DNA from: Candidatus Dormiibacterota bacterium
GTDB lineage: Bacteria > Chloroflexota > Dormibacteria > Dormibacterales > Dormibacteraceae
DNA length: 44,244 nt
Assembly (NCBI GenBank): GCA_036565325.1
Contig: DATCNF010000133.1
Span: forward strand, 1-44,244
Direction: 5' to 3'
Positions 4,589-31,628 of the stretch are shown here, piece by piece. A program made the position numbers and the translations under genes. The notes beneath the pieces are model-generated. The model was given only the letters and a program-made list of their open reading frames with translations, was not told the DNA's origin and made no database searches. Each line of letters opens with the position of its first letter. Position 1 is the stretch's first letter.

Positions 4589-5647
<1,059 letters not shown>

Positions 5648-5651
5648 GTCC

Positions 5652-5687
5652 CCCTCCCCGCGCGCGGGGAGGGTAGGGGTGGGGACG
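5652..5687 (+). repeat. SD/anti-SD hairpin repeat, copy C (CCCTCCCCGCG/CGCGGGGAGGG palindrome plus G-rich tail TAGGGGTGGGGACG); also a terminator-like hairpin after the ATPase gene
   Basis: Perfect 22-nt palindrome at 5652-5673, starting 4 nt after the TGA at 5645-5647. The tail gives four G-runs (GGGG A GGG TA GGGG T GGGG), a G-quadruplex-type motif. The reverse complement matches copy D at 21789-21820. Confidence 0.7.
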
Positions 5688-5689
5688 GT

Positions 5690-6520
5690 GTGATCCCAGC
5701 AGCCCTGGCGCTGGTCCTCGGCGCGGCCGGGATGCACGCCGCCTGGAACGTGATGCTCAAGGGCTCCTCCGATCCCCTGCGGCTCTCGCTGCGCGCGCTG
5801 GTCACGGGGACCGTCCTCTTCGCGCCGCTGGTACTGGGGGCCTGGCTGGTCACCGGCCGCCCCGGCCTGCAGCCGGCGGGCTGGCTCTGCGTGGCCGGCT
5901 CGGCGGTCGCCGAGCTCTTCTACTTCGTCTTCCTCAGCCACGCCTACCGGCACGGCGAGCTGTCGTTCGTCTACCCGATCGCTCGCGGCACCGGTCCCCT
6001 GATCGCGGTGGCGGCCGGGCTCCTGATCCTGCGCGAGCGCCTGGGCGCGCTCCAACTGGTGGGAGTCGCCGCGCTGCTGCTTGGGATCTGGCTCGTGCGC
6101 CGGCCGGCGGGCGCCTCCGGACCCCTGCTGGCGGCCCTCGCCACCGGCCTCTTTATCGGCACTTACACGGTGATCGACAGGGTCGGCGTGCAGCAGGGAC
6201 CGCCCTGGCTCTACGGCTGGTTCGTGTTCGCGCTCAGCGTCGTCCTGCTGGCGGGCTGGGTGGCGCTATTCGGCGGCGACGGGGATGCCCCCGGCTGGCG
6301 ACGCTCCACGGTGGTCGGCTTCCTGATGACCGCCACCTTCTACCTGGTCCTGGTGGCGCTGGCGGTGGCGCCGGTCGCGGTGGTGGCGCCGGCCCGGGAG
6401 TCGGCGATCGTGCTGGTCAGCGCCTGGGGCGTGCTCCGCATGCGGGAGCGCGAGGGCCTGCCGCTCAAGCTGGGGGGCGCGGGGGCCATCCTGGCCGGCG
6501 TCGTCATGCTCGTGATCTAG
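5690..6520 (+). CDS. EamA/DMT-superfamily transporter
   Basis: 276 aa, about 10 hydrophobic helices in two similar halves, GTG start. Confidence 0.8.
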   Translation: MIPAALALVLGAAGMHAAWNVMLKGSSDPLRLSLRALVTGTVLFAPLVLGAWLVTGRPGLQPAGWLCVAGSAVAELFYFVFLSHAYRHGELSFVYPIARGTGPLIAVAAGLLILRERLGALQLVGVAALLLGIWLVRRPAGASGPLLAALATGLFIGTYTVIDRVGVQQGPPWLYGWFVFALSVVLLAGWVALFGGDGDAPGWRRSTVVGFLMTATFYLVLVALAVAPVAVVAPARESAIVLVSAWGVLRMREREGLPLKLGGAGAILAGVVMLVI

Positions 6521-6553
6521 GGTGAAAGATCCGAGCGCCGGCGCTCGGCTTGT

Positions 6554-7488: not shown

Positions 7489-7533
7489 ACGCTAGCGCCC
7501 CCACCGCGCCCCTCCGGCCTGCTGCCCAGGCCA

Positions 7534-7554
7534 CCTCCCCCGCAAGCGGGGAGG
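7534..7554 (-). terminator. Terminator-like hairpin of the CCTCCCC/GGGGAGG type after the IlvD-family gene
   Basis: CCTCCCCCGC-AA-GCGGGGAGG (one bulged C), starting 4 nt after the minus-strand stop at 7558-7560. No U-tract. Confidence 0.5.
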
Positions 7555-15524: not shown

Positions 15525-16757
15525 GTGGCGGTCGCGGAAGCCCAGACGCTCGAGCGCCTGAACCGGCTGATCGGCCGCCTGCGGGCGCGCGTCCCCTTCT
15601 ACCGGGAGCGCCTCCCGGAGGCACCACTTGAGTCCCTCGAGCAGTTCGGCGAGCTGCCCTTCACCACCAAGGACGACTTCCGCCAGAACTATCCGTACGG
15701 CCTGCTCGCGGTGCCGCTGGAGGATGTGGTGCGGGTGCATGCTTCCAGCGGCACCACCGGCCGGCCCGTGCTCACGGCGTACACGCGCGGCGACCTCGAC
15801 CTGTGGGGCGAGTGCATGGAACGTGTGTACCGGGCCGGGGGCGTGGGTCCTGGCGACGTCGTGCAGAACGCTTACGGGTACGGGCTCTTCACCGGCGGCC
15901 TCGGCTTCCACCTCGGTGCCGAGCGCCTCGGCTGCACGGTGATCCCGACCAGTTCCGGGGTCACCCAGCGCCAGGTCATGCTGATCGCCGACCTCGGCAC
16001 CACCGTCCTCACCTGCACGCCCTCCTACGCGCTGGTGCTGGCGGAAGCCATCGCCGAGGAGTCCTCGCGCCCGCTCCTCAAGCTGCGGGTCGGCTTCTTC
16101 GGCGCCGAGCCCTGGACCGACGGCATGCGCCGCCAGATCCAGTACGGCCTCGGGCTGGAGGCCTTCGACATCTATGGCCTGACCGAGCTCGGGGGCCCGG
16201 GCGTGGCCGTGGAATGCCACCAGCACAACGGGCTGCACATCTCCGAGGACCACTTCTACGCAGAGACCGTCGACCCCGAAACCGGCCGGCCGCTGCCGCG
16301 CGGGGAGCCCGGCGAGCTGGTGCTCACCAGCCTCCGGCGGGAGGCCTCACCCGTGCTGCGCTATCGCACGCGGGACCGCACGATCCTGACCGAGGAGCCC
16401 TGTCCCTGCGGCAGCCCGTTCGTGCGTATGGTCAAGGTCCACGGCCGGACCGACGACATGATCGTGGTCCGGGGCGAGAACGTGTTCCCCAGCCAGATCG
16501 AGGGGATCCTGCTCTCCATCGAGGGCCTGACCGCGAACTACCAGATCGTGGTCGACCGCGAGGCCAAGCAGCTGGACAGCGTGGAGGTCGTGGTCGAGGC
16601 CGCCCCGCACACCGACCACGCCAGCCTCCAGCGCGAGGCCGAGGAGAAGATCCGGGAGACCATCGGCCTGCGGGCCGAGATCAGCATCCTGCCCCCGGGC
16701 GTGCTGCCCCGCAGCGAGGGCAAAGCAAAGCGCGTGATCGACCGACGTTCGCTATAA
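15525..16757 (+). CDS. Phenylacetate-CoA ligase family (PaaK-like) adenylating enzyme
   Basis: 410 aa. LPFTTKDDFRQNYPYGL, VHASSGTTGRPV, CTPSYALVLAE, YRTRDRT, RGENVFPSQIE, and a C-terminal KAKRVIDRR are typical PaaK/F390-synthetase motifs. Confidence 0.9.
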   Translation: MAVAEAQTLERLNRLIGRLRARVPFYRERLPEAPLESLEQFGELPFTTKDDFRQNYPYGLLAVPLEDVVRVHASSGTTGRPVLTAYTRGDLDLWGECMERVYRAGGVGPGDVVQNAYGYGLFTGGLGFHLGAERLGCTVIPTSSGVTQRQVMLIADLGTTVLTCTPSYALVLAEAIAEESSRPLLKLRVGFFGAEPWTDGMRRQIQYGLGLEAFDIYGLTELGGPGVAVECHQHNGLHISEDHFYAETVDPETGRPLPRGEPGELVLTSLRREASPVLRYRTRDRTILTEEPCPCGSPFVRMVKVHGRTDDMIVVRGENVFPSQIEGILLSIEGLTANYQIVVDREAKQLDSVEVVVEAAPHTDHASLQREAEEKIRETIGLRAEISILPPGVLPRSEGKAKRVIDRRSL

Positions 16758-16764
16758 GCGAGAC

Positions 16765-16837
16765 AACCTCCCCACTAGCTGGGGAGGTCCCTCGCAGCGA
16801 AGCTGCGAGGGGGTGGGGGCGATGTAAGCCCCCCACC
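16765..16837 (+). repeat. SD/anti-SD hairpin repeat, copy A (three consecutive hairpins) in a convergent intergenic spacer
   Basis: H1 CCTCCCCA-ctagc-TGGGGAGG (16767-16787). H2 CCCTCGCAGC-gaa-GCTGCGAGGG (16789-16811). H3 GGTGGGGGC-gatgtaa-GCCCCCCACC (16812-16837). Collinear with copy B at 21317-21375. Confidence 0.8.
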
Positions 16838-17562
16838 TAGCAGGCCCGGTCGGCGTCGCGGCCGGCCTTCAGGTACTGGACCAGCCACACCGGCGCGCCC
16901 GTGATCGAAGAGGCGCACATCAGCGCCGCCTCCGCCGGCGAGCCGGCGCCGGCCACCCAGTTGGCGTCGAGGCCCGGCGCCGACCAGCCGCCGGTGACCT
17001 CGGCCCACTGCCGCGCGGTGCTGTAGAGGCCGAGCATGGCACCGCGCGCCTTGAGGAAGTCGATCGCCCCGCGCAGCACCGATCGATTGAGGACCAGGTT
17101 GGCCGCCGACCAGCTGTTGGCGGTCTCCACGTCCAGCCACCAGGTGCGCACGCGCTGGCCGGTGGCGGTGTACAGCCAAGCCCTGGCCAGCTCCGCCTCG
17201 CTGCAGCCGATGGCGTAGGCCTGGCGCTCGAGGCTGGTGCCGCTGGCCGAGCCTGAGCGGACGCCGCAGCCGGCGGTGATGTGGGGGGCGTAGGTCGGCG
17301 AGTAGGCGGTGTTCATGTACACCGACGAGGTGCCCGGGGCGCCCGCCAGCTCGGCGGCCGCGCAGCCGTTGCGAGTGAAGGGCCGGCCGTTGGTCACCGC
17401 CACGATCGCGAACGCTCCGCGGGCCGGAGCGCCGCACTGGTAGACCGAGCTGTCATAGCCCACTGACCCGCGGGCGTACAGCGGGGAGGCGGCCAGCGCG
17501 GGGGCGGTCGTGACGGCGTAAGCCGCCAGCGCGAGGGTGACGGCGGCGACCAGGCGGGCCAT
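16837..17562 (-). CDS. Secreted glycoside-hydrolase-fold protein (GH25 / Rv2525c-DUF1906-like)
   Basis: ATG 17562 gives 241 aa with signal peptide MARLVAAVTLALAAYAVTTAPALA. GYDSSVYQCG, FAIVAVTNG, WWLDVE and VWLVQY follow the GH25-like pattern. The upstream part of ORF 16837..18015 is shadow. Confidence 0.55.
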   Translation of the reverse strand: MARLVAAVTLALAAYAVTTAPALAASPLYARGSVGYDSSVYQCGAPARGAFAIVAVTNGRPFTRNGCAAAELAGAPGTSSVYMNTAYSPTYAPHITAGCGVRSGSASGTSLERQAYAIGCSEAELARAWLYTATGQRVRTWWLDVETANSWSAANLVLNRSVLRGAIDFLKARGAMLGLYSTARQWAEVTGGWSAPGLDANWVAGAGSPAEAALMCASSITGAPVWLVQYLKAGRDADRAC

Positions 17563-17641
17563 GCCTCCACGAAACGGACCTGACCCGACAAGCTTGCGGC
17601 CCTTCGGTGAAGAGCTGTGAAGGCCGCGGTATCCTCGGCCG

Positions 17642-19087
17642 GTGGCCACCGGTCTGGTCGAGCGCCTGTCAGAGATCGTCGGGAACTCGTGGCTGGTCCG
17701 CGACCTCGAGGCGCTGGAGGAATACGGGCACGACGCCACCTTCATGGAGTCGGCGCCCCTGTGCGCGGTGAGGCCGGCCTCCACCGAGGAGGTGGCCGCG
17801 GTGGTGCGCGAGGCGGCGGCCGCCGGCGTGCCCGTGGTCGCCCGCGGGGCCGGGACCTCGCTGGTCGGCGGGCCGGTGCCGCTGGCCGCGGGCGTGGTGG
17901 TGAGCCTGGACCGGCTGACGGGCCTCGAGATCGATGCGCCGAACACGGTTGCCGTGGTGGGCGCGGGCGTGATCACGGCCGCCCTGGACGAGGCGGCGGC
18001 CGCGCATGGGCTCATGTACCCGCCCGACCCCGCCTCCTACGAGATGTCGACGATCGGCGGCAACGTGGCCTGCAACTCGGGCGGCATGCGCTGCGTGAAG
18101 TACGGCGTGACCGCCGACTACGTGATCGGGATGACGGTCGTGCTGGCAACCGGCGAGGTGCTGAGGCTGGGCGGGAAGCTGCGCAAGCGGGCGTCCGGGT
18201 ACCGCACCATGCAGCTCTTCATCGGCTCCGAGGGGACGCTTGGGATCGTGACCGAGGTGATCGTCAAGCTGATCCCCCGGCCGCGCTTCGTGGCCACCGC
18301 GATGGTCGGCTTCCGGCGCCTGGAGGACGCCGGCAGTGCCGTGGCGCGGGCCCTGGCGGCGGGTCACTTTCCGGCGGCCATCGAGATCCTGGACCGGGGC
18401 TCGCTGGAGCTGGTCGCCGAGAAGCTGCCGCCCGGCTTCGAGCCCGAGCTGCAGGCGGTGCTGATCGTCGAGCAGGACGGCAACGACGAGGAGTTCGTGC
18501 AGCTCGACCTCATGAAGATGGTCGAGGTCCTGGACGGCGCCGACAATAGGATCGCCCAGTCCTCTCTGGAGCGCGAGCGGCTCTGGGAGGCGCGGCGCTC
18601 GTTCGGCAAGGTGCTGATGTCGATGCCCAAGAACTTCTTCGCCGAGGACGTGGCGGTGCCGATCGCGGAGATCCCGGAGATGATCCGGCGGGTGCAGGAG
18701 CTGGCGCGCGCGACCGGGTTGCGGATCGTCACCGTTGGGCATGCCGGCGATGGCAACCTGCACCCCACGATCCTGTTCGAGGACTCGCAGCGCGGCCTGG
18801 TCTCGGGGGCGGCGGCGCAGATCTTCAGGGACGCGCTGGCGCTGGGCGGCTCGATCTCCGCCGAGCACGGGCTGGGGGCGCTGAAGCGCGATTACGCGGA
18901 GCTGGAGCACGGCGCGCTGGGCATGGAGCTGATGCGCAGGTTGAAGCAGGCCCTCGACCCGGCGGGCATCTTGAACCCGCACAAGGTCTTCCCCGAACGG
19001 CCGGCGGACGACGCCTTCCTGGAGTCGATGCCGGGCTGGCTGCCGGACCCTGAGCGGCGCCGCCGCAAGGCGGAGCTCGGGCTCTGA
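17642..19087 (+). CDS. FAD-linked oxidase (GlcD / D-lactate dehydrogenase family)
   Basis: 481 aa. PCMH-type FAD-binding domain (VVARGAGTSLVGGPVP, GGNVACNSGG) and a C-terminal FAD-oxidase domain (SAEHGLGALKRDY). GTG start 6 nt after TATCCT. Confidence 0.9.
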   Translation: MATGLVERLSEIVGNSWLVRDLEALEEYGHDATFMESAPLCAVRPASTEEVAAVVREAAAAGVPVVARGAGTSLVGGPVPLAAGVVVSLDRLTGLEIDAPNTVAVVGAGVITAALDEAAAAHGLMYPPDPASYEMSTIGGNVACNSGGMRCVKYGVTADYVIGMTVVLATGEVLRLGGKLRKRASGYRTMQLFIGSEGTLGIVTEVIVKLIPRPRFVATAMVGFRRLEDAGSAVARALAAGHFPAAIEILDRGSLELVAEKLPPGFEPELQAVLIVEQDGNDEEFVQLDLMKMVEVLDGADNRIAQSSLERERLWEARRSFGKVLMSMPKNFFAEDVAVPIAEIPEMIRRVQELARATGLRIVTVGHAGDGNLHPTILFEDSQRGLVSGAAAQIFRDALALGGSISAEHGLGALKRDYAELEHGALGMELMRRLKQALDPAGILNPHKVFPERPADDAFLESMPGWLPDPERRRRKAELGL

Positions 19088-19094
19088 GGCGCCC

Positions 19095-19616
19095 CTACTC
19101 CAGCAGCTTGTAGAGGTAGGTGGTGGCGCCTCGAGTCCCGTCACTGAGCAGCGAGTAGTCGGGGATCACGCCGGCCACCGTCCAACCCAGCTCGCGGTAG
19201 AGGCGCTCCGCGTCGCTGCCGGTCTGGGTGTCGAGGACCAGCGTGGTGCGGCCGCGCTCCCGCGCCAGCGCCTCGACCGCGTCCATGAGCGCGCGCCCTA
19301 TGCCCTGGCGGCGCGCCGACCGGTGCACCAGCAGCTTGGCGACCTCGGCGCGGAAGCGCCCGTTGGGCATCACCGAGGGGTGCAGCTGGACGGTGCCCAC
19401 CAGCGCGCCCTCGGCCCAGGCGCCGAGCAGCAGCACCCGGCCGGCGGCCACATCCGGCAGCAGCGAACGCCACCAGGCAGTGGCATCGACGGTCGAGAAA
19501 GGAATCACGAAGCCCACGCTCGCGCCCCCCTCCACGGCGTCGGCCAGGATCGAGGCCAGCGCGTCCAGCTCGCGTTCGGCGGCGGCCGCGTCGAGCGGGG
19601 CGATGTCGAGACTCAA
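19095..19616 (-). CDS. GNAT-family N-acetyltransferase
   Basis: Acetyl-CoA motif A LLVHRSARRQGIGRALMDAV. TTG 19616 overlaps the upstream stop (TTGA). The ORF-track start at 19706 overlaps the previous gene. Confidence 0.8.
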   Translation of the reverse strand: MSLDIAPLDAAAAERELDALASILADAVEGGASVGFVIPFSTVDATAWWRSLLPDVAAGRVLLLGAWAEGALVGTVQLHPSVMPNGRFRAEVAKLLVHRSARRQGIGRALMDAVEALARERGRTTLVLDTQTGSDAERLYRELGWTVAGVIPDYSLLSDGTRGATTYLYKLLE

Positions 19617-20068
19617 TCGACCAGGCGCAGCTGCATGAAGTAGTCGCGCGGCGTGAAGCCCGCCGCCGCGTACAGTGGCCGCCCGGCCTCCGTCGCCCGC
19701 AGCCACACGCGACCCCGCACTCCCGCCCCGCGTGCGAAGGCCAGCAGCTCCCCGAGCACGGCGTGCGCGACCCCGCGGCCCCGGAAACGGGGCTCGGTGT
19801 ACATGCTCGAGATGTAAGCCTCCGTGCCGCTGACGCCGGGCGACGGCGGCACCTCGTAGAGAGTGATGGCGCCGATCCCGGCGGGCACCCCATCGATCTC
19901 AGCGAGGAAGGCGGCGAGATCGTGACGATCGAGGCGGCCGGCAAGCCAGCCCGCGATCTCACGTTCGATCGTCGCCTCGTCCCAGTCGAAGGGCGGGGGT
20001 GACTGGCGGATGAAGGCCAAACGCAGCCGCGCCCAGGCCGCGACCTCGTCGGCGGTGACCCGGCGCAC
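19613..20068 (-). CDS. GNAT-family N-acetyltransferase
   Basis: MYTEPRFRGRGVAHAVLGELLAFA motif A. GTG 20068 lies 2 nt after the E2 stop. The upstream part of ORF 19613..20167 overlaps E2. Confidence 0.75.
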   Translation of the reverse strand: MRRVTADEVAAWARLRLAFIRQSPPPFDWDEATIEREIAGWLAGRLDRHDLAAFLAEIDGVPAGIGAITLYEVPPSPGVSGTEAYISSMYTEPRFRGRGVAHAVLGELLAFARGAGVRGRVWLRATEAGRPLYAAAGFTPRDYFMQLRLVD

Positions 20069-20070
20069 GT

Positions 20071-20898
20071 TCAGAGCCGCGCCAGCTCCTCTTCGACGCG
20101 CGCCAGCAGGCGGTCGGCGGCGTAGTCGTCGTACGCGCGGCGGTCGTAACACAGCGTGAGGAAACAACGTCCCTCGCGTATCGCTCCTTGCGCGAGGATG
20201 CCGGGCTCGCCCGGGTTCACCAGCGGAAACGCCATCAGGGCGCCGCCGCCGCCGACATTGGTGATCGTGAAGCCCCCGCCGGTCACCTCGTCCGGCCGGA
20301 GTCCCGCTGCCCGCGCCCGCGCTGCCAGATCGGCGATCCGGTCAGACACCTGGTCGAGGTCGAGCGCCGGCACGTCCTTCACCACCGGCACCAGCAGGCC
20401 GCCCGGCACCTCCACCGCCACGCCGACATTGGCGACCGGCACCGCCGCTGCCAGCGCCTTTACGAAGTAGGACGTCCAGCTCCGCGCACCGCGCTGGATG
20501 TGGGACACGTCGACCTCGCGCACGCAGGCGCCCTGGGGGATGCGTGCCCGCGCCTCCTGCATGCGCTCGGCGATGCGCCGTCGCATCGAGCTGAGGCCGC
20601 CGGCGGGCGCCGGGGCCACGGCGGCAGGCGGGGGCTGCGTCATCGCGTGGTGGACGCCGACCCGTGGCCCGTCATCCCCGATCCGCGCGATGACCTGGCC
20701 CACCGGCACCGTCTCGCCGGCCGCGACCAGGATCTCCAGCACCCCGTCCGCCGGCGCCTCCAGCTCGGAGTTGACCTTGTCGGTCTCGATCTCGACCAGC
20801 GGCTCGCCCTTGCGCACGGCCTCCCCGGCCTGCTTGAGCCAGCGCGAGACGGTTCCCTCGACCAGGGTGTCGGCCAGCTTGGGCAGCTCGACGTCCAT
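20071..20898 (-). CDS. Lipoyl-domain E2-like acyltransferase with shortened core, no PSBD, and Arg replacing the catalytic His
   Basis: Lipoyl domain with IETDKV. A Pro/Ala linker runs straight into the core (SSMRRRIAERM, GLLVPVVKD, GGGFTITNVGG). The position of DHRxxDG reads YDRRAYDD (Arg codon 20140-20142). Confidence 0.8.
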   Translation of the reverse strand: MDVELPKLADTLVEGTVSRWLKQAGEAVRKGEPLVEIETDKVNSELEAPADGVLEILVAAGETVPVGQVIARIGDDGPRVGVHHAMTQPPPAAVAPAPAGGLSSMRRRIAERMQEARARIPQGACVREVDVSHIQRGARSWTSYFVKALAAAVPVANVGVAVEVPGGLLVPVVKDVPALDLDQVSDRIADLAARARAAGLRPDEVTGGGFTITNVGGGGALMAFPLVNPGEPGILAQGAIREGRCFLTLCYDRRAYDDYAADRLLARVEEELARL

Positions 20899-20923
20899 GA
20901 CGCCGAGATTATCCGGGCGCCGC

Positions 20924-21313
20924 TTATGAGCTACTCGAACGCCGTCTGACCCAGATCAGCGCCGGCGCCCAGGTCAGGGCGCCGGCTGCCAGGAGCGCCC
21001 ACTCCAGCCCGCGTACGGCGGGCATCTCGACCAGGGCGCCGAAGATGCACATCGACGCCGCGCCCGCCAGCAGGAAGGCCCCCGGGAAGAGCGCCCAGGC
21101 GCTGTACCAGGGCGGGGCGCCTTCGCGGTCGCTGAGGCGGTCGGTGAGGATCACGGCCAGCGCCACCAGCAGCGCGGGCACGCTCATGCTCAGGGCCCAG
21201 GGCGCCTGGACTCCGCCCGCCATGGCCGCGATCAGGGGCTGGATGGCGCAAAGCGTGAGCCCAGCCGGAACCGTGAAAGCGAGCAGCCGAAGGGTGGCCG
21301 AGGCGGGGGGCAT
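20924..21313 (-). CDS. Small hypothetical membrane protein (about 4 TM)
   Basis: ATG 21313 overlaps the upstream stop (TGATG) and lies 7 nt after GGGGAGG. 129 aa, hydrophobic, high GC3. The upstream part of ORF 20924..21673 is shadow. Confidence 0.65.
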   Translation of the reverse strand: MPPASATLRLLAFTVPAGLTLCAIQPLIAAMAGGVQAPWALSMSVPALLVALAVILTDRLSDREGAPPWYSAWALFPGAFLLAGAASMCIFGALVEMPAVRGLEWALLAAGALTWAPALIWVRRRSSSS

Positions 21314-22803
21314 CAAACAACCTCCCCGCTCGCCGGGGAGGTCCCTCGCGGCGCAGCCGCGAGGGGGTGGGGACGTTCCGCCTCTAGCGACCGCTTGAGC
21401 ACGGCGAGAAAGCGCCCGGCGTCGGCGCCGTCGACGGCGCGGTGGTCGACCGACAGGGCCAGGTAAGCCTTGCCGTCGCGCACCGCTCCCACCCGGAGCG
21501 TCGCGCTCTGGCCCGGGCGCACTGCGGGGAGGCCGAGCAGGGAGCCGGAGCTGCCGTAGTCGACCAGGGTGAAGGTGCCGCCGCCGCGGGCGGGGGAGAG
21601 GAGGCCGAGGTCGAGGTCGATCGAGACCTGGTCGTGGAGCAGGATGCCGTCCCAGGTGAAGGTGGCGTTGCACTGGGGGACCGCCGCGCAGGCCTCGGCG
21701 ACCGCGGCCACCACCGCCTCCAGGTGGGCTTCGGGGAGTTCCACTTCGACGACGCTGGTTGCCTCGGGGATGGTGGTGTCGTACGGCTCCCCCACCCCAA
21801 CCCTCCCCGGGGGGGAGGGGGTCTGTTGCATCACCTTTCTAGCCGCCTCGGCGATTCCCCTTCGGTTAGGGATCACCGCGTCTTCCATGCGGTCGGCCAC
21901 CGGGATGCCCCCGATGTCGGGCATGGCGACGCGGGCGGGCGGGACGCGGAGCACGCCCGCTTCGGCGGCCAGGGCGCACAGCTCGGCGCCCAGGCCCATG
22001 GTCAGCGTGTCCTCGTGGACCACCAGGAGGCGGCCGGTCCGGCGCAATGCATTCAGGAGGCCTTCGCGGTCGAGCGGCAGCAGCCAGCGCAGGTCGAGCA
22101 CCTCGGCCTCGATCCCTTCGGCGGCCAGCTCCTCGGCCGCGGCCAGCGCCTCGTGCAGCATCATCCCCCAGCCCACGATGGTCAGGGCGTCGCCGGCGCG
22201 CGCGACCCGCAGCCGCCCGTCGTCGACCACGTGCTCGCCCTCCGGCACCGGGCCGCTGATCGCCCGGTAGGTGCGCTTGTGTTCCAGGAAGAGCACCGGG
22301 TCGGGGTCCCGGATGGCGGCGGTGAGCATCCCCTTGGCGTCGTCCGGGAACGACGGGGCCATCACCTTCAGCCCGGGGACGTGCGCGTAGAACGCCTCCA
22401 CGCTCTGGGAGTGGTAGGGGCCGCCCCGGAACCCGCCGCCGTAGGCGGTGCGCATGACCAGCGGGCACGTCCAATCGCCGCCGGTGCGGTAGCGGAGCCG
22501 GGCGGCTTCGCCGGCCAGGTGGTCCATGGCGGCGTGCATGAAGTCGGCGAACTGGATCTCAGCCACCGGCCGCAGGCCGCGCATGGCGATCCCCATCGAG
22601 ATGCCTGAGATCGCCAGCTCGGCCATCGGCATGTCGATGACGCGCTCGGGCCCGAAGCGGTCGAGCAGCCCCTCGGTGGCGCGGAAGACGCCACCCAGGC
22701 GCCCGATGTCCTCGCCCAGCAGGATGACGCGCTCGTCCCGCGTCATCTCCTCCGCGAGAGACTCGCGGACCGCGTCAAGAAGTGTGAGCGTACGTGTGCT
22801 CAA
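21313..22803 (-). CDS. 2-oxoacid (or acetoin) dehydrogenase E1 beta subunit fused to a partial E2 acyltransferase core domain
   Basis: Residues ~1-325 are E1 beta (LLGEDIGRLGGVF, MPMAELAISG, PSFPDDAKGML). A linker PSPPGRVGVG follows, then ~140 aa with GGTFTLVDYGS and LSVDHRAVDGADAGRFL (His codon 21442-21444). The last ~18 aa are encoded by repeat copy B. TTG start overlaps E1 alpha by 29 nt. Confidence 0.8.
   Translation of the reverse strand: MSTRTLTLLDAVRESLAEEMTRDERVILLGEDIGRLGGVFRATEGLLDRFGPERVIDMPMAELAISGISMGIAMRGLRPVAEIQFADFMHAAMDHLAGEAARLRYRTGGDWTCPLVMRTAYGGGFRGGPYHSQSVEAFYAHVPGLKVMAPSFPDDAKGMLTAAIRDPDPVLFLEHKRTYRAISGPVPEGEHVVDDGRLRVARAGDALTIVGWGMMLHEALAAAEELAAEGIEAEVLDLRWLLPLDREGLLNALRRTGRLLVVHEDTLTMGLGAELCALAAEAGVLRVPPARVAMPDIGGIPVADRMEDAVIPNRRGIAEAARKVMQQTPSPPGRVGVGEPYDTTIPEATSVVEVELPEAHLEAVVAAVAEACAAVPQCNATFTWDGILLHDQVSIDLDLGLLSPARGGGTFTLVDYGSSGSLLGLPAVRPGQSATLRVGAVRDGKAYLALSVDHRAVDGADAGRFLAVLKRSLEAERPHPLAAAPRGTSPASGEVV
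21317..21375 (+). repeat. SD/anti-SD hairpin repeat, copy B, inside the 3' coding tail of the E1beta-E2' gene
   Basis: H1 CCTCCCCG-ctcgc-CGGGGAGG (21321-21341). H2 CCCTCGCGGC-gca-GCCGCGAGGG (21343-21365), then GGTGGGGACG. Relative to copy A, both stems carry a two-sided A:T to G:C change. Confidence 0.8.
21789..21820 (-). repeat. SD/anti-SD hairpin repeat, copy D (inverted relative to copy C), in frame as the E1beta/E2' linker
   Basis: Plus strand: CCCCACCCCAACCCTCCCCGGGGGGGAGGGG, matching the reverse complement of copy C. Minus strand: CCCUCCCC/GGGGAGGG hairpin, then GGGAGG, 6 nt, in-frame GTG (21795), plus four G-runs. Confidence 0.7.
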
Positions 22804-28908: not shown

Positions 28909-31449
28909 ATGGCGATCAGCAAGATGATCGGCGCCAAGATCCATCGCCGCGAAGATCCCCGGCTGGTCTCCGGCGGCGGCCGCTACATGGACGACTTCAA
29001 ACGGCCCAACACCACCTACGCCGCTTTCATCCGCAGCCCTTACGCGCACGCCAAGATCCGGATGATCGACCCCACCGAGGCCAAGCAGGCGCCCGGGGTC
29101 GTGGCCGTGTTCACCGCGAAGGACTTCGAAGGCGTGCTGATGGGCCCGGCGCCGGTCGCGCCGGCCTTCGTGGCCGAGAAGCACACGGTTCCCGACCGGC
29201 CGCCGCTGCCGCTCGACGAGGTCGTCTACCAGGGCCAGCCCGTGGCCATGGTGATCGCCGAGTCGAAGGCCGAGGCCGCCGACGCGGCGGCGCTGGTCCA
29301 GGTCGACTACGAGCCGCTGCCCGCGGTCATGGACCTCGAGAAGGCCCTCGACCCCAGCAGCCCCAAGGCGCACACCGCGCTGCCCGACAACATCGCCTGG
29401 GACCTGGTCTACAACGCTGACGCCGACTCGAGCTTCGCCGAGGCCGAGGTCACCGTGAAGGAGCGGATCCTGCAGCAGCGCCTGGCGCCGACTCCAATGG
29501 AGACGCGCAGCGTGATGGCCGAGTGGAGCCCACACGAGGGCTCGATGACGCTCTGGCTCTCCAACCAGGGTCCCCACTTCATCCGCCTCTTCGTGGGCGG
29601 CGCGCTGGGGCTTCCCGAAAACCGCATGCGCGTCATCTCGCCCGATGTGGGCGGAGGCTTCGGCGCCAAGATCTGCCCCTACCCCGAGGACTACCTGGTG
29701 CCGGGGGCCGCCAAGATTCTCAAGCGACCGGTCAAGTGGACCGAGAGCCGCACCGAGTCGATCCAGGTCACCACCCACGGCCGCGGCCAGATCTTCGACG
29801 TCGAGGTCGCCGGCATGAAGGACGGCACGCTGCTGGGCATGAAGGTCACCCAGTACCTGGACGCGGGGGCCTACATCGGCACCTTCGGCGCCTTCCAGGC
29901 CTGCGCCTGCCTGCTGGCGGGTGGCGGCTACAAGTGGAAGCAGATCGCCGCCCGCACCATCGGCGTGCTCACCAACAAGGTTTCCACCGATCCCTACCGC
30001 GGCGCCGGCCGGCCCGAGGCCACCCACCTGGTGGAGCGCATGGTCGACGTCTTCGCTCGCGAGATCGGGATGGACCCCGCGGCGGTCCGCAAGAAGAACT
30101 TCGTCCAGCCCGGAGACTTCCCCTACACCCAGAACTTCGGGCTGGTCATGGACTCCGGCGACTACGAGCGCTCGCTCGACAAGGCGATGCAGATCGTCGG
30201 CTACGAGCAGGTGCGCAAGGAGCAGGAGGAGGGCCGTAAGCAGGGCCGCTATATCGGCATCGGGCTCTCCACCTGGATCGAGATCTGCGGCTTCGGCCCG
30301 GCGGCCGCCACCGCCCCGGCCACCGGCGGGATCGGGCTCGTGGAGTCGGCACAGGTACGCGTGTATCCCACCGGTTCGGTGACGGTCTGGACCGGCACCC
30401 ACTCGCACGGCCAGGGGCACGAGACCACGTTCAGCCAGATCGTGGCCGACACCCTGGGCATCCCCTACGACCAGATCGAGATCAAGCACGGCGACACCGG
30501 CGAAGGCACCGCCTTCGGCTACGGGACCTACGGGTCGCGCTCGCTGGCCGTCGGCGGGATGGCGATCAAGATGGCCTCGCAGAAGGTCGTCGACAAGGCC
30601 AAGCAGATCGCCGCCCATTCCTTCGAGGCGGCCGAAGAGGACGTCGTCTTCGAAGGCGGCGAGTTCTACGTCAAGGGCTCGCCCGACAACCGGCGCAAGA
30701 TCCAGGAGGTCGCGTTCGAGGCCTACGGCGCCGCGCTGCCGGAAGGCATGGAGCAAGGGCTGGAGGCGGTCGCCTACTTCGATCCGCCCAACTTCGTGTG
30801 GCCCTTCGGCGCCCACATCTGTGTGGTCGAGGTGGACATCGAGACGGGCGCCGTCAAGATGCTGAAGTACGTGGCCGTGGACGACTGCGGCAACGTGATC
30901 AACCCCATGATCGTGGAGGGCCAGCTGCACGGCGGAATCGCGCAGGGCATCGCCCAGGCCCTCTTCGAAGAAGTGATCTACGCGGAGGACGGCAGCCTGC
31001 GCACGGGCACGCTGCTCGACTACGCGATCCCCACGGCCAACGAGATGCCGCCGCTCACCCTAGACAGCACGGTGACCCCCTCGCCGACCAACGCGCTCGG
31101 CGTCAAGGGCATCGGTGAGGCGGGCACGATCGCGGCCAGCGGGGCCGTGATCAACGCCATCGTGGACGCGCTTTCGCCCCTTGGCGTGCGCCACGTCGAC
31201 ATGCCGGCCAGCCCGGACCGGCTCTGGAAGCAGCTGCAGGAGCACCGCACCGGCCTCGAGGGCTACCACACGGTGGCCGTCGCCGACACCCCCGAGGTTG
31301 ACGACGCGCCGCGCAAGGGCGGGCCCGAGTCCGAGCTGCCCGGCAGCCTGGACGAGGGCGAGATCGGCAAGACCGGCGGCAAGGCCGAGCCCGGCTCGGA
31401 AGGCTCGCCGCAGGAGGGGCCGCGCCACCAGAAGGACTACGACCGATGA
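28909..31449 (+). CDS. Molybdenum hydroxylase large subunit (xanthine dehydrogenase family; form-II CoxL-like) with ~65-aa acidic/Gly/Pro C-terminal extension
   Basis: ATG 28909 lies 8 nt after AGGGAG. Aldehyde-oxidase/XDH a/b-hammerhead and MoCo-binding domains are present. The active-site loop reads DPYRGAGRPEA (about 29989-30021). GIGEAGTIAA lies near the C-terminus. Confidence 0.9.
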   Translation: MAISKMIGAKIHRREDPRLVSGGGRYMDDFKRPNTTYAAFIRSPYAHAKIRMIDPTEAKQAPGVVAVFTAKDFEGVLMGPAPVAPAFVAEKHTVPDRPPLPLDEVVYQGQPVAMVIAESKAEAADAAALVQVDYEPLPAVMDLEKALDPSSPKAHTALPDNIAWDLVYNADADSSFAEAEVTVKERILQQRLAPTPMETRSVMAEWSPHEGSMTLWLSNQGPHFIRLFVGGALGLPENRMRVISPDVGGGFGAKICPYPEDYLVPGAAKILKRPVKWTESRTESIQVTTHGRGQIFDVEVAGMKDGTLLGMKVTQYLDAGAYIGTFGAFQACACLLAGGGYKWKQIAARTIGVLTNKVSTDPYRGAGRPEATHLVERMVDVFAREIGMDPAAVRKKNFVQPGDFPYTQNFGLVMDSGDYERSLDKAMQIVGYEQVRKEQEEGRKQGRYIGIGLSTWIEICGFGPAAATAPATGGIGLVESAQVRVYPTGSVTVWTGTHSHGQGHETTFSQIVADTLGIPYDQIEIKHGDTGEGTAFGYGTYGSRSLAVGGMAIKMASQKVVDKAKQIAAHSFEAAEEDVVFEGGEFYVKGSPDNRRKIQEVAFEAYGAALPEGMEQGLEAVAYFDPPNFVWPFGAHICVVEVDIETGAVKMLKYVAVDDCGNVINPMIVEGQLHGGIAQGIAQALFEEVIYAEDGSLRTGTLLDYAIPTANEMPPLTLDSTVTPSPTNALGVKGIGEAGTIAASGAVINAIVDALSPLGVRHVDMPASPDRLWKQLQEHRTGLEGYHTVAVADTPEVDDAPRKGGPESELPGSLDEGEIGKTGGKAEPGSEGSPQEGPRHQKDYDR

Positions 31450-31627
31450 CCCGGGCCGCACCGGGCCAGCCGGACGTCGACGACGCTCCCCGCCGCGGGG
31501 GGCCGCAGTCGCCGCTGCCGGGAAGCCTCGACGAGGGCCAGATCGCGGGCACCGGCGGCTCCGCCGAGCCCGGTTCCGAAGGCTCGCCGCAAGAAGGACC
31601 ACGCCACCAGGAGGATTACGACCAGTG
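31270..31627 (+). repeat. Tandem duplication, 2 x 179 bp, spanning the coxL 3' end and the junction to coxM
   Basis: GTTGACGACGCG... at 31297 recurs as GTCGACGACGCT... at 31476, and the stop codons at 31447-31449 and 31626-31628 are 179 nt apart. The encoded peptides match at about 42 of 52 aligned residues (my count). Confidence 0.85.
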
Positions 31628-31628
31628 A
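31446..31628 (+). CDS. 60-aa ORF paralogous to the CoxL C-terminal tail (acidic, Gly/Pro-rich)
   Basis: ATG overlaps the coxL stop (ATGA), and its own stop overlaps the coxM GTG (GTGA). Sequence: ...DVDDAPRRGGPQSPLPGSLDEGQIAGTGGSAEPGSEGSPQEGPRHQEDYDQ. Divergence from copy 1 is mostly synonymous in the last 14 codons. Confidence 0.5.
   Translation: MTRAAPGQPDVDDAPRRGGPQSPLPGSLDEGQIAGTGGSAEPGSEGSPQEGPRHQEDYDQ

Follow-up and report, generated by a model that had tools for sequence, protein, structure and literature searches.

Probable class II purine-motif triplex repeats, with a hairpin-bearing long form, in a Candidatus Dormibacterota contig

What kind of repeat do the CCTCCCC/GGGGAGG hairpins represent that recur in the 44,244-nt stretch of DNA analyzed here (the window)? 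Their host is a population of Candidatus Dormibacterota, an uncultured soil phylum. The earlier note on this DNA had listed five related hairpins, all quoted sequences of which are present at their positions, and had recognized no described family in them. That last statement does not stand, as the architecture is that of the class II purine-motif intrastrand triplex motif already described for BoxC/PIT/TM_ECO (PMC4666352). We consider it probable that the five copies are such elements, a GC-rich kind of BoxC/PIT/TM dispersed repeat in Candidatus Dormibacterota.

Five elements and their genomic sites

Using the pattern CCTCCCC-N3-12-GGGGAGG we found five hairpins in the window, all of them perfect, while 0.02 were expected from shuffled sequences. 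A tolerant search (at most one mismatch in the pyrimidine arm and in the third arm) returned exactly five copies, A to E, again perfect throughout, compared to 1.35 mostly imperfect matches in Markov-simulated windows. Shuffles and simulations together rule out a chance origin of the five copies. The elements and their parts are as follows.

16763–16821, plus strand: element A, long form (DNA fold −31.9 kcal/mol, z = −7.6)
16767–16773, plus: pyrimidine arm of A, CCTCCCC
16774–16780, plus: loop between pyrimidine and purine arms of A
16781–16787, plus: purine arm of A, GGGGAGG, then T at 16788
16789–16811, plus: loop-2 hairpin of A, CCCTCGCAGC-GAA-GCTGCGAGGG
16812–16818, plus: third arm of A, GGTGGGG
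16812–16837, plus: third hairpin of A, in whose minimum free energy structure the third arm GGTGGGGGC pairs with downstream GCCCCCCACC
21317–21375, plus: element B, long form
21321–21327, plus: pyrimidine arm of B
21335–21341, plus: purine arm of B, then T at 21342
21343–21365, plus: loop-2 hairpin of B
21366–21372, plus: third arm of B, GGTGGGG
5650–5684, plus: element C, short form
5652–5659, plus: pyrimidine arm of C, CCCTCCCC, then loop GCGCGC
5666–5673, plus: purine arm of C, GGGGAGGG, then a 3-nt loop 2
5677–5684, plus: third arm of C, GGGTGGGG
21789–21821, minus: element D, short form
21819–21812, minus: pyrimidine arm of D, CCCTCCCC, then loop CCC
21808–21801, minus: purine arm of D, GGGGAGGG, then a 3-nt loop 2
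21797–21790, minus: third arm of D, GGGTGGGG
7509–7554, minus: element E, long form
7554–7548, minus: pyrimidine arm of E, CCTCCCC, then loop GCTTGCG
7540–7534, minus: purine arm of E, GGGGAGG, then T at 7533
7532–7516, minus: loop-2 hairpin of E, GGCCTG-GGCAG-CAGGCC
7515–7509, minus: third arm of E, GGAGGGG, with A instead of T opposite the A-T pair
7498–7504, minus: second candidate third arm of E, GGTGGGG, 4 nt past the first (read directly from the sequence)

In all five copies the third arm mirrors the purine arm perfectly, G-C pairs facing G and A-T pairs facing T or A, and every copy is thus a class II purine-motif intrastrand triplex motif. The ITxF definition of Holder et al. 2015 (PMC4666352) asks for a stem of 6–15 nt with at most one mismatch and loops of 1–6 nt; the arms found here measure 7–8 nt without mismatches in 5/5 copies, and the third arm, placed 3' of the purine arm and antiparallel to it, follows the pairing rule perfectly in each. 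The GGGGTGGGG tail noticed earlier is no loose appendage: it is the third arm, and its mirror relation to the purine arm, which had been overlooked, is the defining feature. Likewise, the family of five stands, although the copy at 7534–7554, previously taken for a short relative, is a complete long-form element reading from 7554 to 7509 on the minus strand. In the long form (A, B and E) loop 2 consists of a single T and a hairpin (24 nt in A and B, 18 nt in E), while C and D have the classical short form with a loop 2 of 3 nt and a loop 1 of 6 and 3 nt, respectively. C and D stay within the loop limits of 1–6 nt (ITxF) or 0–10 nt (Hoyne and Maher), and A, B and E exceed them.

Three elements lie just behind genes. 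A is located 9 nt past the TAA stop (16755–16757) of an AMP-binding/PaaK-like gene, between convergent genes; the last base of the GCCCCCCACC downstream of it overlaps the stop codon (16837–16839) of the minus-strand gene. The third hairpin of A may be the remnant of an inverted partner element, and viral matches also show similar G-tail/CCCCAC hairpins. C sits in the 42-nt spacer separating an ABC ATPase gene (stop 5645–5647) from an EamA gene (GTG at 5690), and E begins 3 nt past the ilvD stop (7560–7558). The other two lie in frame within the ORF at 21313–22803. B runs antisense within the 3' end of this minus-strand E1beta-fusion ORF, where it is a 60-nt in-frame insertion adding 20 codons directly ahead of a TGATG stop/start overlap, and D is translated (…QQTPSPPGRVGVGEP…) in the linker joining the E1beta and E2-like C-terminal domains. 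We rejected the idea that D and B caused this E1beta-E2 fusion by rearrangement, as the fusion is kept in element-free relatives. In Dormibacterota-type soil bacteria we found in-frame elements in the E1beta fusion, in DnaX and in an OadA-like carboxylase.

Mirror symmetry and conserved pairing

We next consider how far arms and hairpins are constrained. A (16763–16821) and B (21317–21375) are collinear over 59 nt with 88% identity, and their seven differences comprise four in two compensated pairs, two in loops and one past the third arm, so that no pair is broken. The two-sided changes pointed out before are confirmed: the closing pair of hairpin 1 is A:T in A and G:C in B, and hairpin 2 reads CCCTCGCAGC/GCTGCGAGGG in A and CCCTCGCGGC/GCCGCGAGGG in B. 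Pairing kept through two-sided changes holds well beyond this pair of elements. In a set of 15 loop-2 hairpins of equal length, taken from other contigs, 98.9% of the cells are paired and 5 of 6 pairs are altered on both sides, a result that 0 of 500 shuffles equalled. This same-length subset and per-sequence folding were used because the mixed-length MAFFT alignment of long forms was not structure-consistent; the subset omits nine sequences of the 16-nt class, as their spacing reflected another possible third arm within the hairpin. Relatives of A and B from soil metagenomes carry the stems CCGCC/GGCGG, CCGGC/GCCGG and CGCGGC/GCCGCG. Selection for pairing had been read from the changes in A and B; compensatory changes in palindromes can also come from templated (quasi-palindrome) mutation without selection.

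In total we counted 118–135 long-form instances with many different arm sequences. The first base of loop 2 is T in 52 of 56 long forms, and 41% of the second loops have a closing helix of 4 bp or more, compared to 4% of control segments. For the mirror rule we analyzed 789 asymmetric pyrimidine/purine hairpins; these loci were collected by motif scans and are not a random genome sample, while the mirror/direct comparison is internal. Among them, third arms matching at 90% or more fit a mirror copy better in 100 cases and a direct one in 5, and 47 are tied. The rule is also obeyed by complex arms, for instance GGGGTTGAGGG after GGGAGAAGGGG and AGGGGGAGTT after AAGAGGGGGA. Opposite an A-T pair the third arm carries T in 72, A in 11 and C in 2 cases; E and L125 have A. 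As the triplex rule does not demand T, its preference over A suggests either sequence-specific recognition or shared descent.

Relation to known repeats and distribution

The closest described elements are BoxC, PIT and TM_ECO, which Holder et al. 2015 (PMC4666352) equate and for which they define class II motifs (see also Bachellier et al.; Hoyne and Maher 2000). They occur in E. coli and other Proteobacteria with the same one-strand arm order, and like the window elements they are GC-rich, dispersed, variable in copy number among relatives, sometimes arranged as inverted pairs and so far without an assigned function. The same study reports triplex formation of TM_ECO in vitro (CD/NMR) together with instability and inverted pairs, whereas triplex signals were not seen in duplex DNA or by in vivo DMS footprinting. 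There are also differences. The stem reads CC(C)TCCCC/GGGGAGG(G)/GG(G)TGGGG here and CCCTCNCCC/GGGNGAGGG in TM_ECO, and the pattern CCCTCNCCC-N3-6-GGGNGAGGG-N3-GGGNGAGGG has no match in the window. The host is a member of the Dormibacterota rather than of the Proteobacteria, loop 2 has 18–24 nt with a hairpin in 3 of 5 copies instead of 3 nt, and B and D lie inside coding sequence while TM_ECO is reported to be always intergenic. Moreover, the 4-1-4 motif is common in viral contigs, in contrast to TM_ECO, reported without phage or plasmid association.

The words themselves have been met in archaea: the identical GGGGAGGGG/GGGGTGGGG/CCCCTCCCC triad (G4-A-G4 / G4-T-G4 / C4-T-C4) was studied in Methanomicrobiaceae (PMC8044849), where an equilibrium of hairpin, antiparallel triplex and G-quadruplex was found in vitro (S1/CD). 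These recurrent PQS repeats share GGGGGTGGGG, GGGGAGGGGG and CCCCCTCCCC with the window and are multi-copy and intergenic, but their order is third, purine and pyrimidine arm (class I instead of class II), and a hairpin within the loop as in the long form is not described. REP/BIME elements resemble those of the window as short GC-rich palindromes just 3' of genes with lineage-specific proliferation and compensated pairing, but lack a third mirror arm; neither a GTAG-type foot next to any of the five copies nor a RAYT gene linked to them in the 44 kb was found. In H-DNA-forming homopurine mirror repeats, purine and third arm likewise form a mirror repeat with G·G-C and T/A·A-T rules. There, a mirror repeat in supercoiled duplex suffices, whereas the window elements carry the pyrimidine partner on the same strand, so that the whole fold can form from single-stranded DNA. 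A further likeness, limited to the mode of tolerance in genes, concerns the palindromic elements (RPEs) of Rickettsia, which Ogata and colleagues are said to have described in 2000: reportedly 100–150 bp long, structured, AT-rich and without triplex architecture, they lie in frame within protein genes and add peptides at tolerant positions. BoxC, PIT and triplex motifs became known some 30 years ago, and to our knowledge no function has been assigned to them.

The comparison with Rfam suggested earlier matched no family: there was no hit at gathering score in the whole window or on 11 contigs dense in long forms, and E-value mode around A to D gave only a chance match to mir-1268 (E = 0.37). 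The long form is not described in the papers citing Holder et al. or those found by sequence strings, a search in which subscription journals are mostly uncovered. The long form is widespread; neither of the published search definitions covers it, and it has no match in Rfam. We give little credence to the further-reaching view that it constitutes an undescribed, phylogenetically widespread class of structured ssDNA elements that colonizes coding linkers in frame and in which three-way covariation reflects recognition of the antiparallel triplex rather than of a hairpin or quadruplex alone, e.g. by a mobilizing or processing enzyme.

In one scan, the pattern CCTCCCC-N-GGGGAGG-N-GGGGTGGGG was found in more than 120 viral contigs with GC contents from 41 to 73%, which speaks against a genome-specific REP/MITE. 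A host search of viral contigs rich in long forms against PLSDB gave no match for one (L108) and a weak Methylobacterium match for another (L120). Density is lineage-specific, with 5 elements per 44 kb in the window and 2 per ~330 kb in related MAG loci. Comparison with relatives reveals sites polymorphic for insertion: against L123–L125, B is an insertion of exactly 60 nt, A is missing from the orthologous 13-nt spacer of L123, and the site of D is occupied by a long form, a short form or nothing in different relatives, with long forms in L124 and L125 and none in L123 or relatives further away. A was found in 8 strain-level contigs, and C also in the relatives L121 and L122. Within the window CCCTCGC...GCGAGGG occurs only in A and B; this idiosyncratic hairpin is common to them and to L365, L367 and L374 at different loci. 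All 16 near-identical contigs carry A, B and D, giving no strain-level empty site, and neither a target-site duplication, a terminal repeat nor a candidate mobilizing enzyme was found; at filled and empty sites of B, with flanks only ~75–80% identical, no duplication is visible. The elements appear to be mobile, judging from comparisons at ~75–85% identity.

Alternative explanations and proposed behavior

The G-rich arms could instead reflect selection for a four-G-tract quadruplex (purine arm plus tail) that is restrained by the upstream C-rich arm and has its effect on transcription or translation. A role of this kind has been proposed for the E. coli motif, which has been presented as a G-quadruplex/hairpin switch (Kaplan et al. 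2016, PMC5100583). C and D, reading GGGG-A-GGG-TA/TT-GGGG-T-GGGG, are excellent motifs with four tracts of at least three G and short loops (1–7 nt); in the ViennaRNA quadruplex model the three-tier quadruplex lies slightly below the hairpin (−27.4 vs −24.0 and −29.3 vs −24.7 kcal/mol), and related sequences form quadruplexes in vitro (PMC5100583, PMC8044849). Yet a quadruplex does not need the third arm to mirror non-G positions of the second, which it does by 100 to 5, and any base could be a quadruplex loop though C interrupts in only 2 of 85 cases. A, B and E have 2-G tracts (GGGGAGG, GGTGGGG) or a long central loop and lack the four-tract motif; since such tracts allow only weak two-tier quadruplexes, a quadruplex accounts poorly for the long forms, and B has the double hairpin as its minimum free energy structure. 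We regard the switch as an unlikely account of the family. Somewhat less probable still is a role in RNA, as factor-independent terminators without U-tracts or REP-like barriers shielding upstream mRNA from 3' exonucleases, even though A, C and E start 9, 2–4 and 3 nt past stop codons in sense orientation to the upstream gene, the hairpins fold very stably and many metagenome relatives likewise lie past stop codons or between convergent genes. None of the five elements is followed by a T-run or called in a terminator and promoter scan that did detect a canonical hairpin plus T-tract at 6531–6548; B and D lie within an operon's ORF upstream of co-oriented genes, B is antisense to transcription, and an RNA hairpin leaves the mirror arm unexplained. 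RNA reportedly does not form triplexes of the purine motif (PMC4666352), and PIT elements in E. coli had no terminator or promoter activity according to the summary of Hoyne and Maher 2002 given there.

The reading as Shine-Dalgarno and anti-Shine-Dalgarno words, in which CCTCCCC would mask the GGAGG site of a downstream gene, is very improbable. The minus strand of B does place GGGGAGG 7 nt ahead of a small-ORF ATG (GGGGAGGTTGTTTGATG), and C stands 17 nt ahead of the EamA GTG. But for A and E a convergent gene or a 90-nt gap leaves no start codon within reach downstream, D forms part of a coding linker, the five copies fail to show a consistent 5–10 nt spacing to start codons, TGATG coupling is kept in relatives without B, and in phage-like contigs and distant phyla the same motif is found whatever the context. 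A homopurine arm rich in G inevitably contains GGAGG-like words; the resemblance is incidental, a product of homopurine/homopyrimidine composition. Unlikely, too, is an origin in place, in which elements would not be copied but would arise and change at homopurine tracts through replication slippage and mutation templated by hairpins. Such processes would fit L361, where the unit CTCCTCCCCGCTTGG is triplicated in tandem beside an element, the G-run of A, differing in length among strains, and the D linker, with a short form in the window and long forms in L124 and L125; templated correction would likewise yield 'compensatory' changes. Against this stand the 88% identity of A and B over 59 nt including an arbitrary 10-bp loop-2 hairpin, its recurrence at a third unrelated locus in other metagenomes, the clean 60-nt block of B, and conserved flanks (ACAA…, …ACG) that move together with the element.

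We return to the proposed triplex elements, which would be copied as units. In a single-stranded state, as during replication, in a transcription bubble or in recombination, the first two arms would pair as a hairpin and the third would fold back antiparallel into its major groove, forming G·G-C and T·A-T triplets; a G-quadruplex could compete in short copies, and in the long form a T and a hairpin of free sequence but conserved pairing stand between the second and third arms. That the triplex forms from the element strand is proposed by analogy with the in vitro work on TM_ECO and the methanogen repeats; it may never form in cells. Elements would be copied to new sites and persist where harm is small, i.e. 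a few nucleotides past stop codons or in frame in disordered protein linkers and tails. Most likely they are selfish or neutral structured DNA promoting local insertions and deletions; we infer that they have no regulatory role and are neither terminator- nor translational-regulator-like.

Our findings do not overturn current views but widen a known class and offer cleaner material for biophysical and instability tests. To a family already known they add the hairpin-in-loop long form, a large part of the family that published searches with loops of at most 6–10 nt miss, as well as in-frame coding copies and an uncultured phylum as host. The mirror rule holds for many arm sequences and provides comparative evidence of a constraint on the repeats by the geometry of the triplex itself, rather than by hairpin or G-quadruplex potential alone, and the in-frame copies show that such elements can supply linker peptides to proteins in an uncultured phylum.

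Repeat copies in the window and their anatomy

In the 44-kb window the pattern CCTCCCC-N3-12-GGGGAGG occurs five times, compared with 0.02 occurrences expected from dinucleotide-preserving shuffles. The hairpin family described in the earlier note is therefore real, and the sequences quoted there were found where it had placed them. A tolerant search (at most one mismatch per outer arm) returned exactly the same five copies, all of them perfect; simulated windows gave 1.35 matches under this search, mostly imperfect. Each element consists, on one strand, of a pyrimidine arm, loop 1, a purine arm, loop 2 and a G-rich third arm.

Copies of the repeat in the window
A, 16763-16821, plus strand: long form; CCTCCCC, loop, GGGGAGG, T, 10-bp hairpin, GGTGGGG
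B, 21317-21375, plus strand: long form, arranged as A
C, 5650-5684, plus strand: short form; CCCTCCCC, loop, GGGGAGGG, three bases, GGGTGGGG
D, 21789-21821, minus strand: short form, arranged as C
E, 7509-7554, minus strand: long form, complete; CCTCCCC gcttgcg GGGGAGG T GGCCTG-ggcag-CAGGCC GGAGGGG; third-arm A, not T

Copies A and B are collinear, as had been claimed; they align over 59 nt with 88% identity, and within the window only these two share a second hairpin, CCCTCGC…GCGAGGG. Four of their seven differences form two compensated pairs, which confirms both two-sided stem changes read from the sequence; of the remaining three, two fall within loops and one lies beyond the last arm. The supposed short relative at 7534-7554 turned out to be part of E, a complete long-form element on the minus strand.

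In all five copies the third arm mirrors the purine arm: each G faces a G, and each A faces a T or an A. Antiparallel purine-motif triple helices follow this same rule (G·G-C, T·A-T, A·A-T). The GGGGTGGGG tail, taken earlier for a mere ending, is this third arm, aligned in register with the purine arm. The arm order pyrimidine, purine, reverse-Hoogsteen is that of the class II intrastrand triplex motif (Holder et al., PMC4666352). Although the earlier note recognized no described family, the elements belong to a known kind, the BoxC/PIT/TM repeats, and methanogen repeats with the same stem word have already been studied. The comparison with Rfam that the note proposed was run, and no family was matched by the window, the elements or contigs rich in the long form. 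Taken together, the description of the feature was correct and its interpretation only partly so.

Mirror symmetry of the third arm

When the arms are symmetric, a mirror copy, as expected for a triplex, looks the same as a direct copy (an alternative hairpin) and as simple richness in G (a quadruplex), and for this reason asymmetric arms were chosen. From all motif-scan loci collected we took 789 perfect pyrimidine/purine hairpins with an asymmetric arm and scored the downstream sequence against a mirror and a direct template, requiring a third-arm match of at least 90%. Among the third arms passing this threshold the mirror template fitted better in 100 cases and the direct template in 5, with 47 ties. 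Scans with 3-1-6 and 6-1-3 arms pointed in the same direction, and the mirror rule was also obeyed by complex arms.

Complex arms obeying the mirror rule
Purine arm GGGAGAAGGGG; third arm GGGGTTGAGGG
Purine arm GGGGGAAGGG; third arm GGGATGGGGG
Purine arm GAGGAGGGG; third arm GGGGTGGAG
Purine arm AAGAGGGGGA; third arm AGGGGGAGTT

A quadruplex as the basis of the repeat would not predict this excess of mirror over direct copies. With the ViennaRNA quadruplex model C and D do have a competitive three-tier G4, but they are the only such copies: the long forms in the window have tracts of two Gs, which allow two-tier quadruplexes only, and for B the double hairpin stays the optimum. We therefore regard a quadruplex basis as unlikely. 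The best reading of the data is that triplex geometry limits which variants persist.

The long form and its spread

Allowing loop 2 to reach about 45 nt across the motif-scan loci collected, we found 118-135 long-form instances on many stems (CCCTCCCC, CCTCCCCC, CCTTCTCCC, CCCTCTCCC and others). In 52 of 56 clear cases the first base of loop 2 is T, followed by a hairpin that varies freely in sequence and length. A helix of 4 bp or more closes 41% of long-form loops versus 4% of random segments of the same length. Across 15 loop-2 hairpins of equal length, pairing holds in 98.9% of cells and two-sided changes are seen at 5 of 6 pairs, a level reached by 0 of 500 shuffles and lost in the slid controls, so that the maintained pairing proposed for A and B is not only right but general. 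A scan of metagenomes for the A/B subtype yielded 19 soil contigs from about 11 loci; among their inner stems are CCGCC/GGCGG, CCGGC/GCCGG and CGCGGC/GCCGCG. The published searches, as described in PMC4666352, limited loops to 1-6 nt (ITxF) or 0-10 nt (Hoyne and Maher), and the long form would thus have escaped them; no description of it was found in the literature searched.

Scanning IMG/VR with CCTCCCC-N3-9-GGGGAGG-N0-30-GGGGTGGGG gave at least 120 matching contigs; the matches listed include both short and long forms and range from 41 to 73% GC. The motif is not specific to one genome. The first two scans together supplied a pool of 162 distinct perfect CCCCTCCCC/GGGGAGGGG hairpins; in 84 of them (52%) a short third arm is present on one side and not on the other, a share to be read with the fact that the pool contains loci picked by the first scan, whose pattern specified the tail. 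Opposite the A-T pair the third arm has T in 72 cases, A in 11 and C in 2. Contigs often end at an element or within a few dozen bases of one (the end of L390; many IMG/VR and metagenome loci, such as L006, L035, L041, L068, L226, L330, L338, L362, L366 and L368), which suggests that the repeats break short-read assemblies.

Genomic sites, coding copies and possible role

The E1beta protein of the window shares 84-86% identity with Candidatus Dormibacterota MAGs, with extended synteny; many soil metagenomes, as well as GCA_036723905.1, contain near-identical contigs. At the site of A the related locus L123 has the flanking convergent genes 13 nt apart and no element. B is a clean 60-nt block, absent from L123 and two further relatives (L124, L125), that lies between the last sense codon and a TGATG stop/start overlap and adds 20 codons. 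D occupies the linker within an E1beta/E2-like fusion whose conservation extends over Dormibacterota and Eremiobacterota. In the window this linker holds the short form; L124 and L125 have a long form there, with the third arms GGTGGGGG and GGAGGGGG respectively, and L123 and more distant relatives have no element. The linkers differ in length by multiples of three. The predicted peptides spanning the elements are TPSPPGRVGVGEP (D) and RPHPLAAAPRGTSPASGEVV (B). The window has 5 elements in 44 kb and the related MAG loci have 2 in about 330 kb; further copies are frequent on contigs with the A/B subtype. All copies are fixed in 16 strain-level contigs, where variation is limited to the length of a G-run and one change in a loop. 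In the strain contigs L384, L388 and L389 the T of the third arm of A is preceded by 6 Gs versus 5 in the window (16808-16813), which reflects either genuine variation of the homopolymer or a sequencing artefact where the structure lies.

The fusion gene (21313-22803, minus strand) joins E1beta (Transket_pyr and Transketolase_C) in frame to a fragment of about 150 residues whose match is confined to the C-terminal third of the E2 acyltransferase catalytic domain. Dormibacterota and Eremiobacterota MAGs (L123-L142) retain the fusion whether or not its linker holds the repeat. The downstream E2 gene (20071-20898, minus strand) encodes just 275 aa, a lipoyl domain and a partial catalytic domain. 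Between them a hydrophobic 129-aa ORF (20924-21313, minus strand), translationally coupled through TGATG and without a Pfam match, is present in L123 and L124 and absent in the Eremiobacterota loci. Elsewhere in the window, a 159-nt tandem duplication (31291-31449 and 31470-31628, 77% identity) lies at the 3' end of a coxL-like molybdopterin dehydrogenase gene, closely followed by the gene for the FAD-binding subunit. The 99.9% identical strain contig L121 departs from the window directly after the EamA gene, from 6524, with an rve-family transposase (IS; L121 6524-7645) in place of the aminoglycoside/hydroxyurea kinase-like gene.

The long-form element also occurs in frame in the linkers of two other proteins encoded on soil metagenome contigs.

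In-frame copies on soil metagenome contigs
DnaX, L359/L364/L373 (L359 7740-7789): peptide residues 415-432, between domain III and the C-terminal domain
OadA/PycB-like carboxylase, L357/L372 (L357 1124-1173), opposite orientation: residues 578-596, Pro/Ala-rich region before the biotinyl domain

Both element strands are almost without A and T, so that stop codons are rare and the encoded peptides are rich in Pro, Gly, Ser and Arg, which suits linkers. At about 3200-3282 of contig L361 the pyrimidine-arm-plus-loop unit CTCCTCCCCGCTTGG is tandemly triplicated ahead of one element, and whole elements in tandem were seen at other loci (L358, L370). On L365 (6643-6743) and L374 (5554-5654) two long-form elements lie inverted 10 nt apart, the same arrangement as reported for TM_ECO pairs in E. 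coli.

A terminator scan of the window found no T-tract at any of the five copies. Downstream of the EamA gene there is a canonical terminator-like hairpin ending in a T-rich tail (6531-6548, plus strand), which indicates that this organism uses ordinary intrinsic terminators. B and D lie within the coding sequence of an operon. The Shine-Dalgarno likeness pointed out earlier is explained by the base composition of the purine arm, and no start codon lies within range of most copies. The E. coli relatives are reported to form a stable triplex in vitro, to give no sign of one in duplex DNA or in vivo, to have neither promoter nor terminator activity, and to be associated with an excess of local rearrangement (PMC4666352). 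Our best reading is that the elements are selfish or neutral structured DNA. As to the copy mechanism and any cellular role, we infer that an element may be copied to new sites by some route, would survive beside stop codons and in linkers, and may foster small insertions and deletions, while triplex geometry would limit the variants that persist. New for this kind of repeat are the host phylum, the loop-2 hairpin variant with its wide spread, the in-frame coding copies and the size of the mirror-rule signal.
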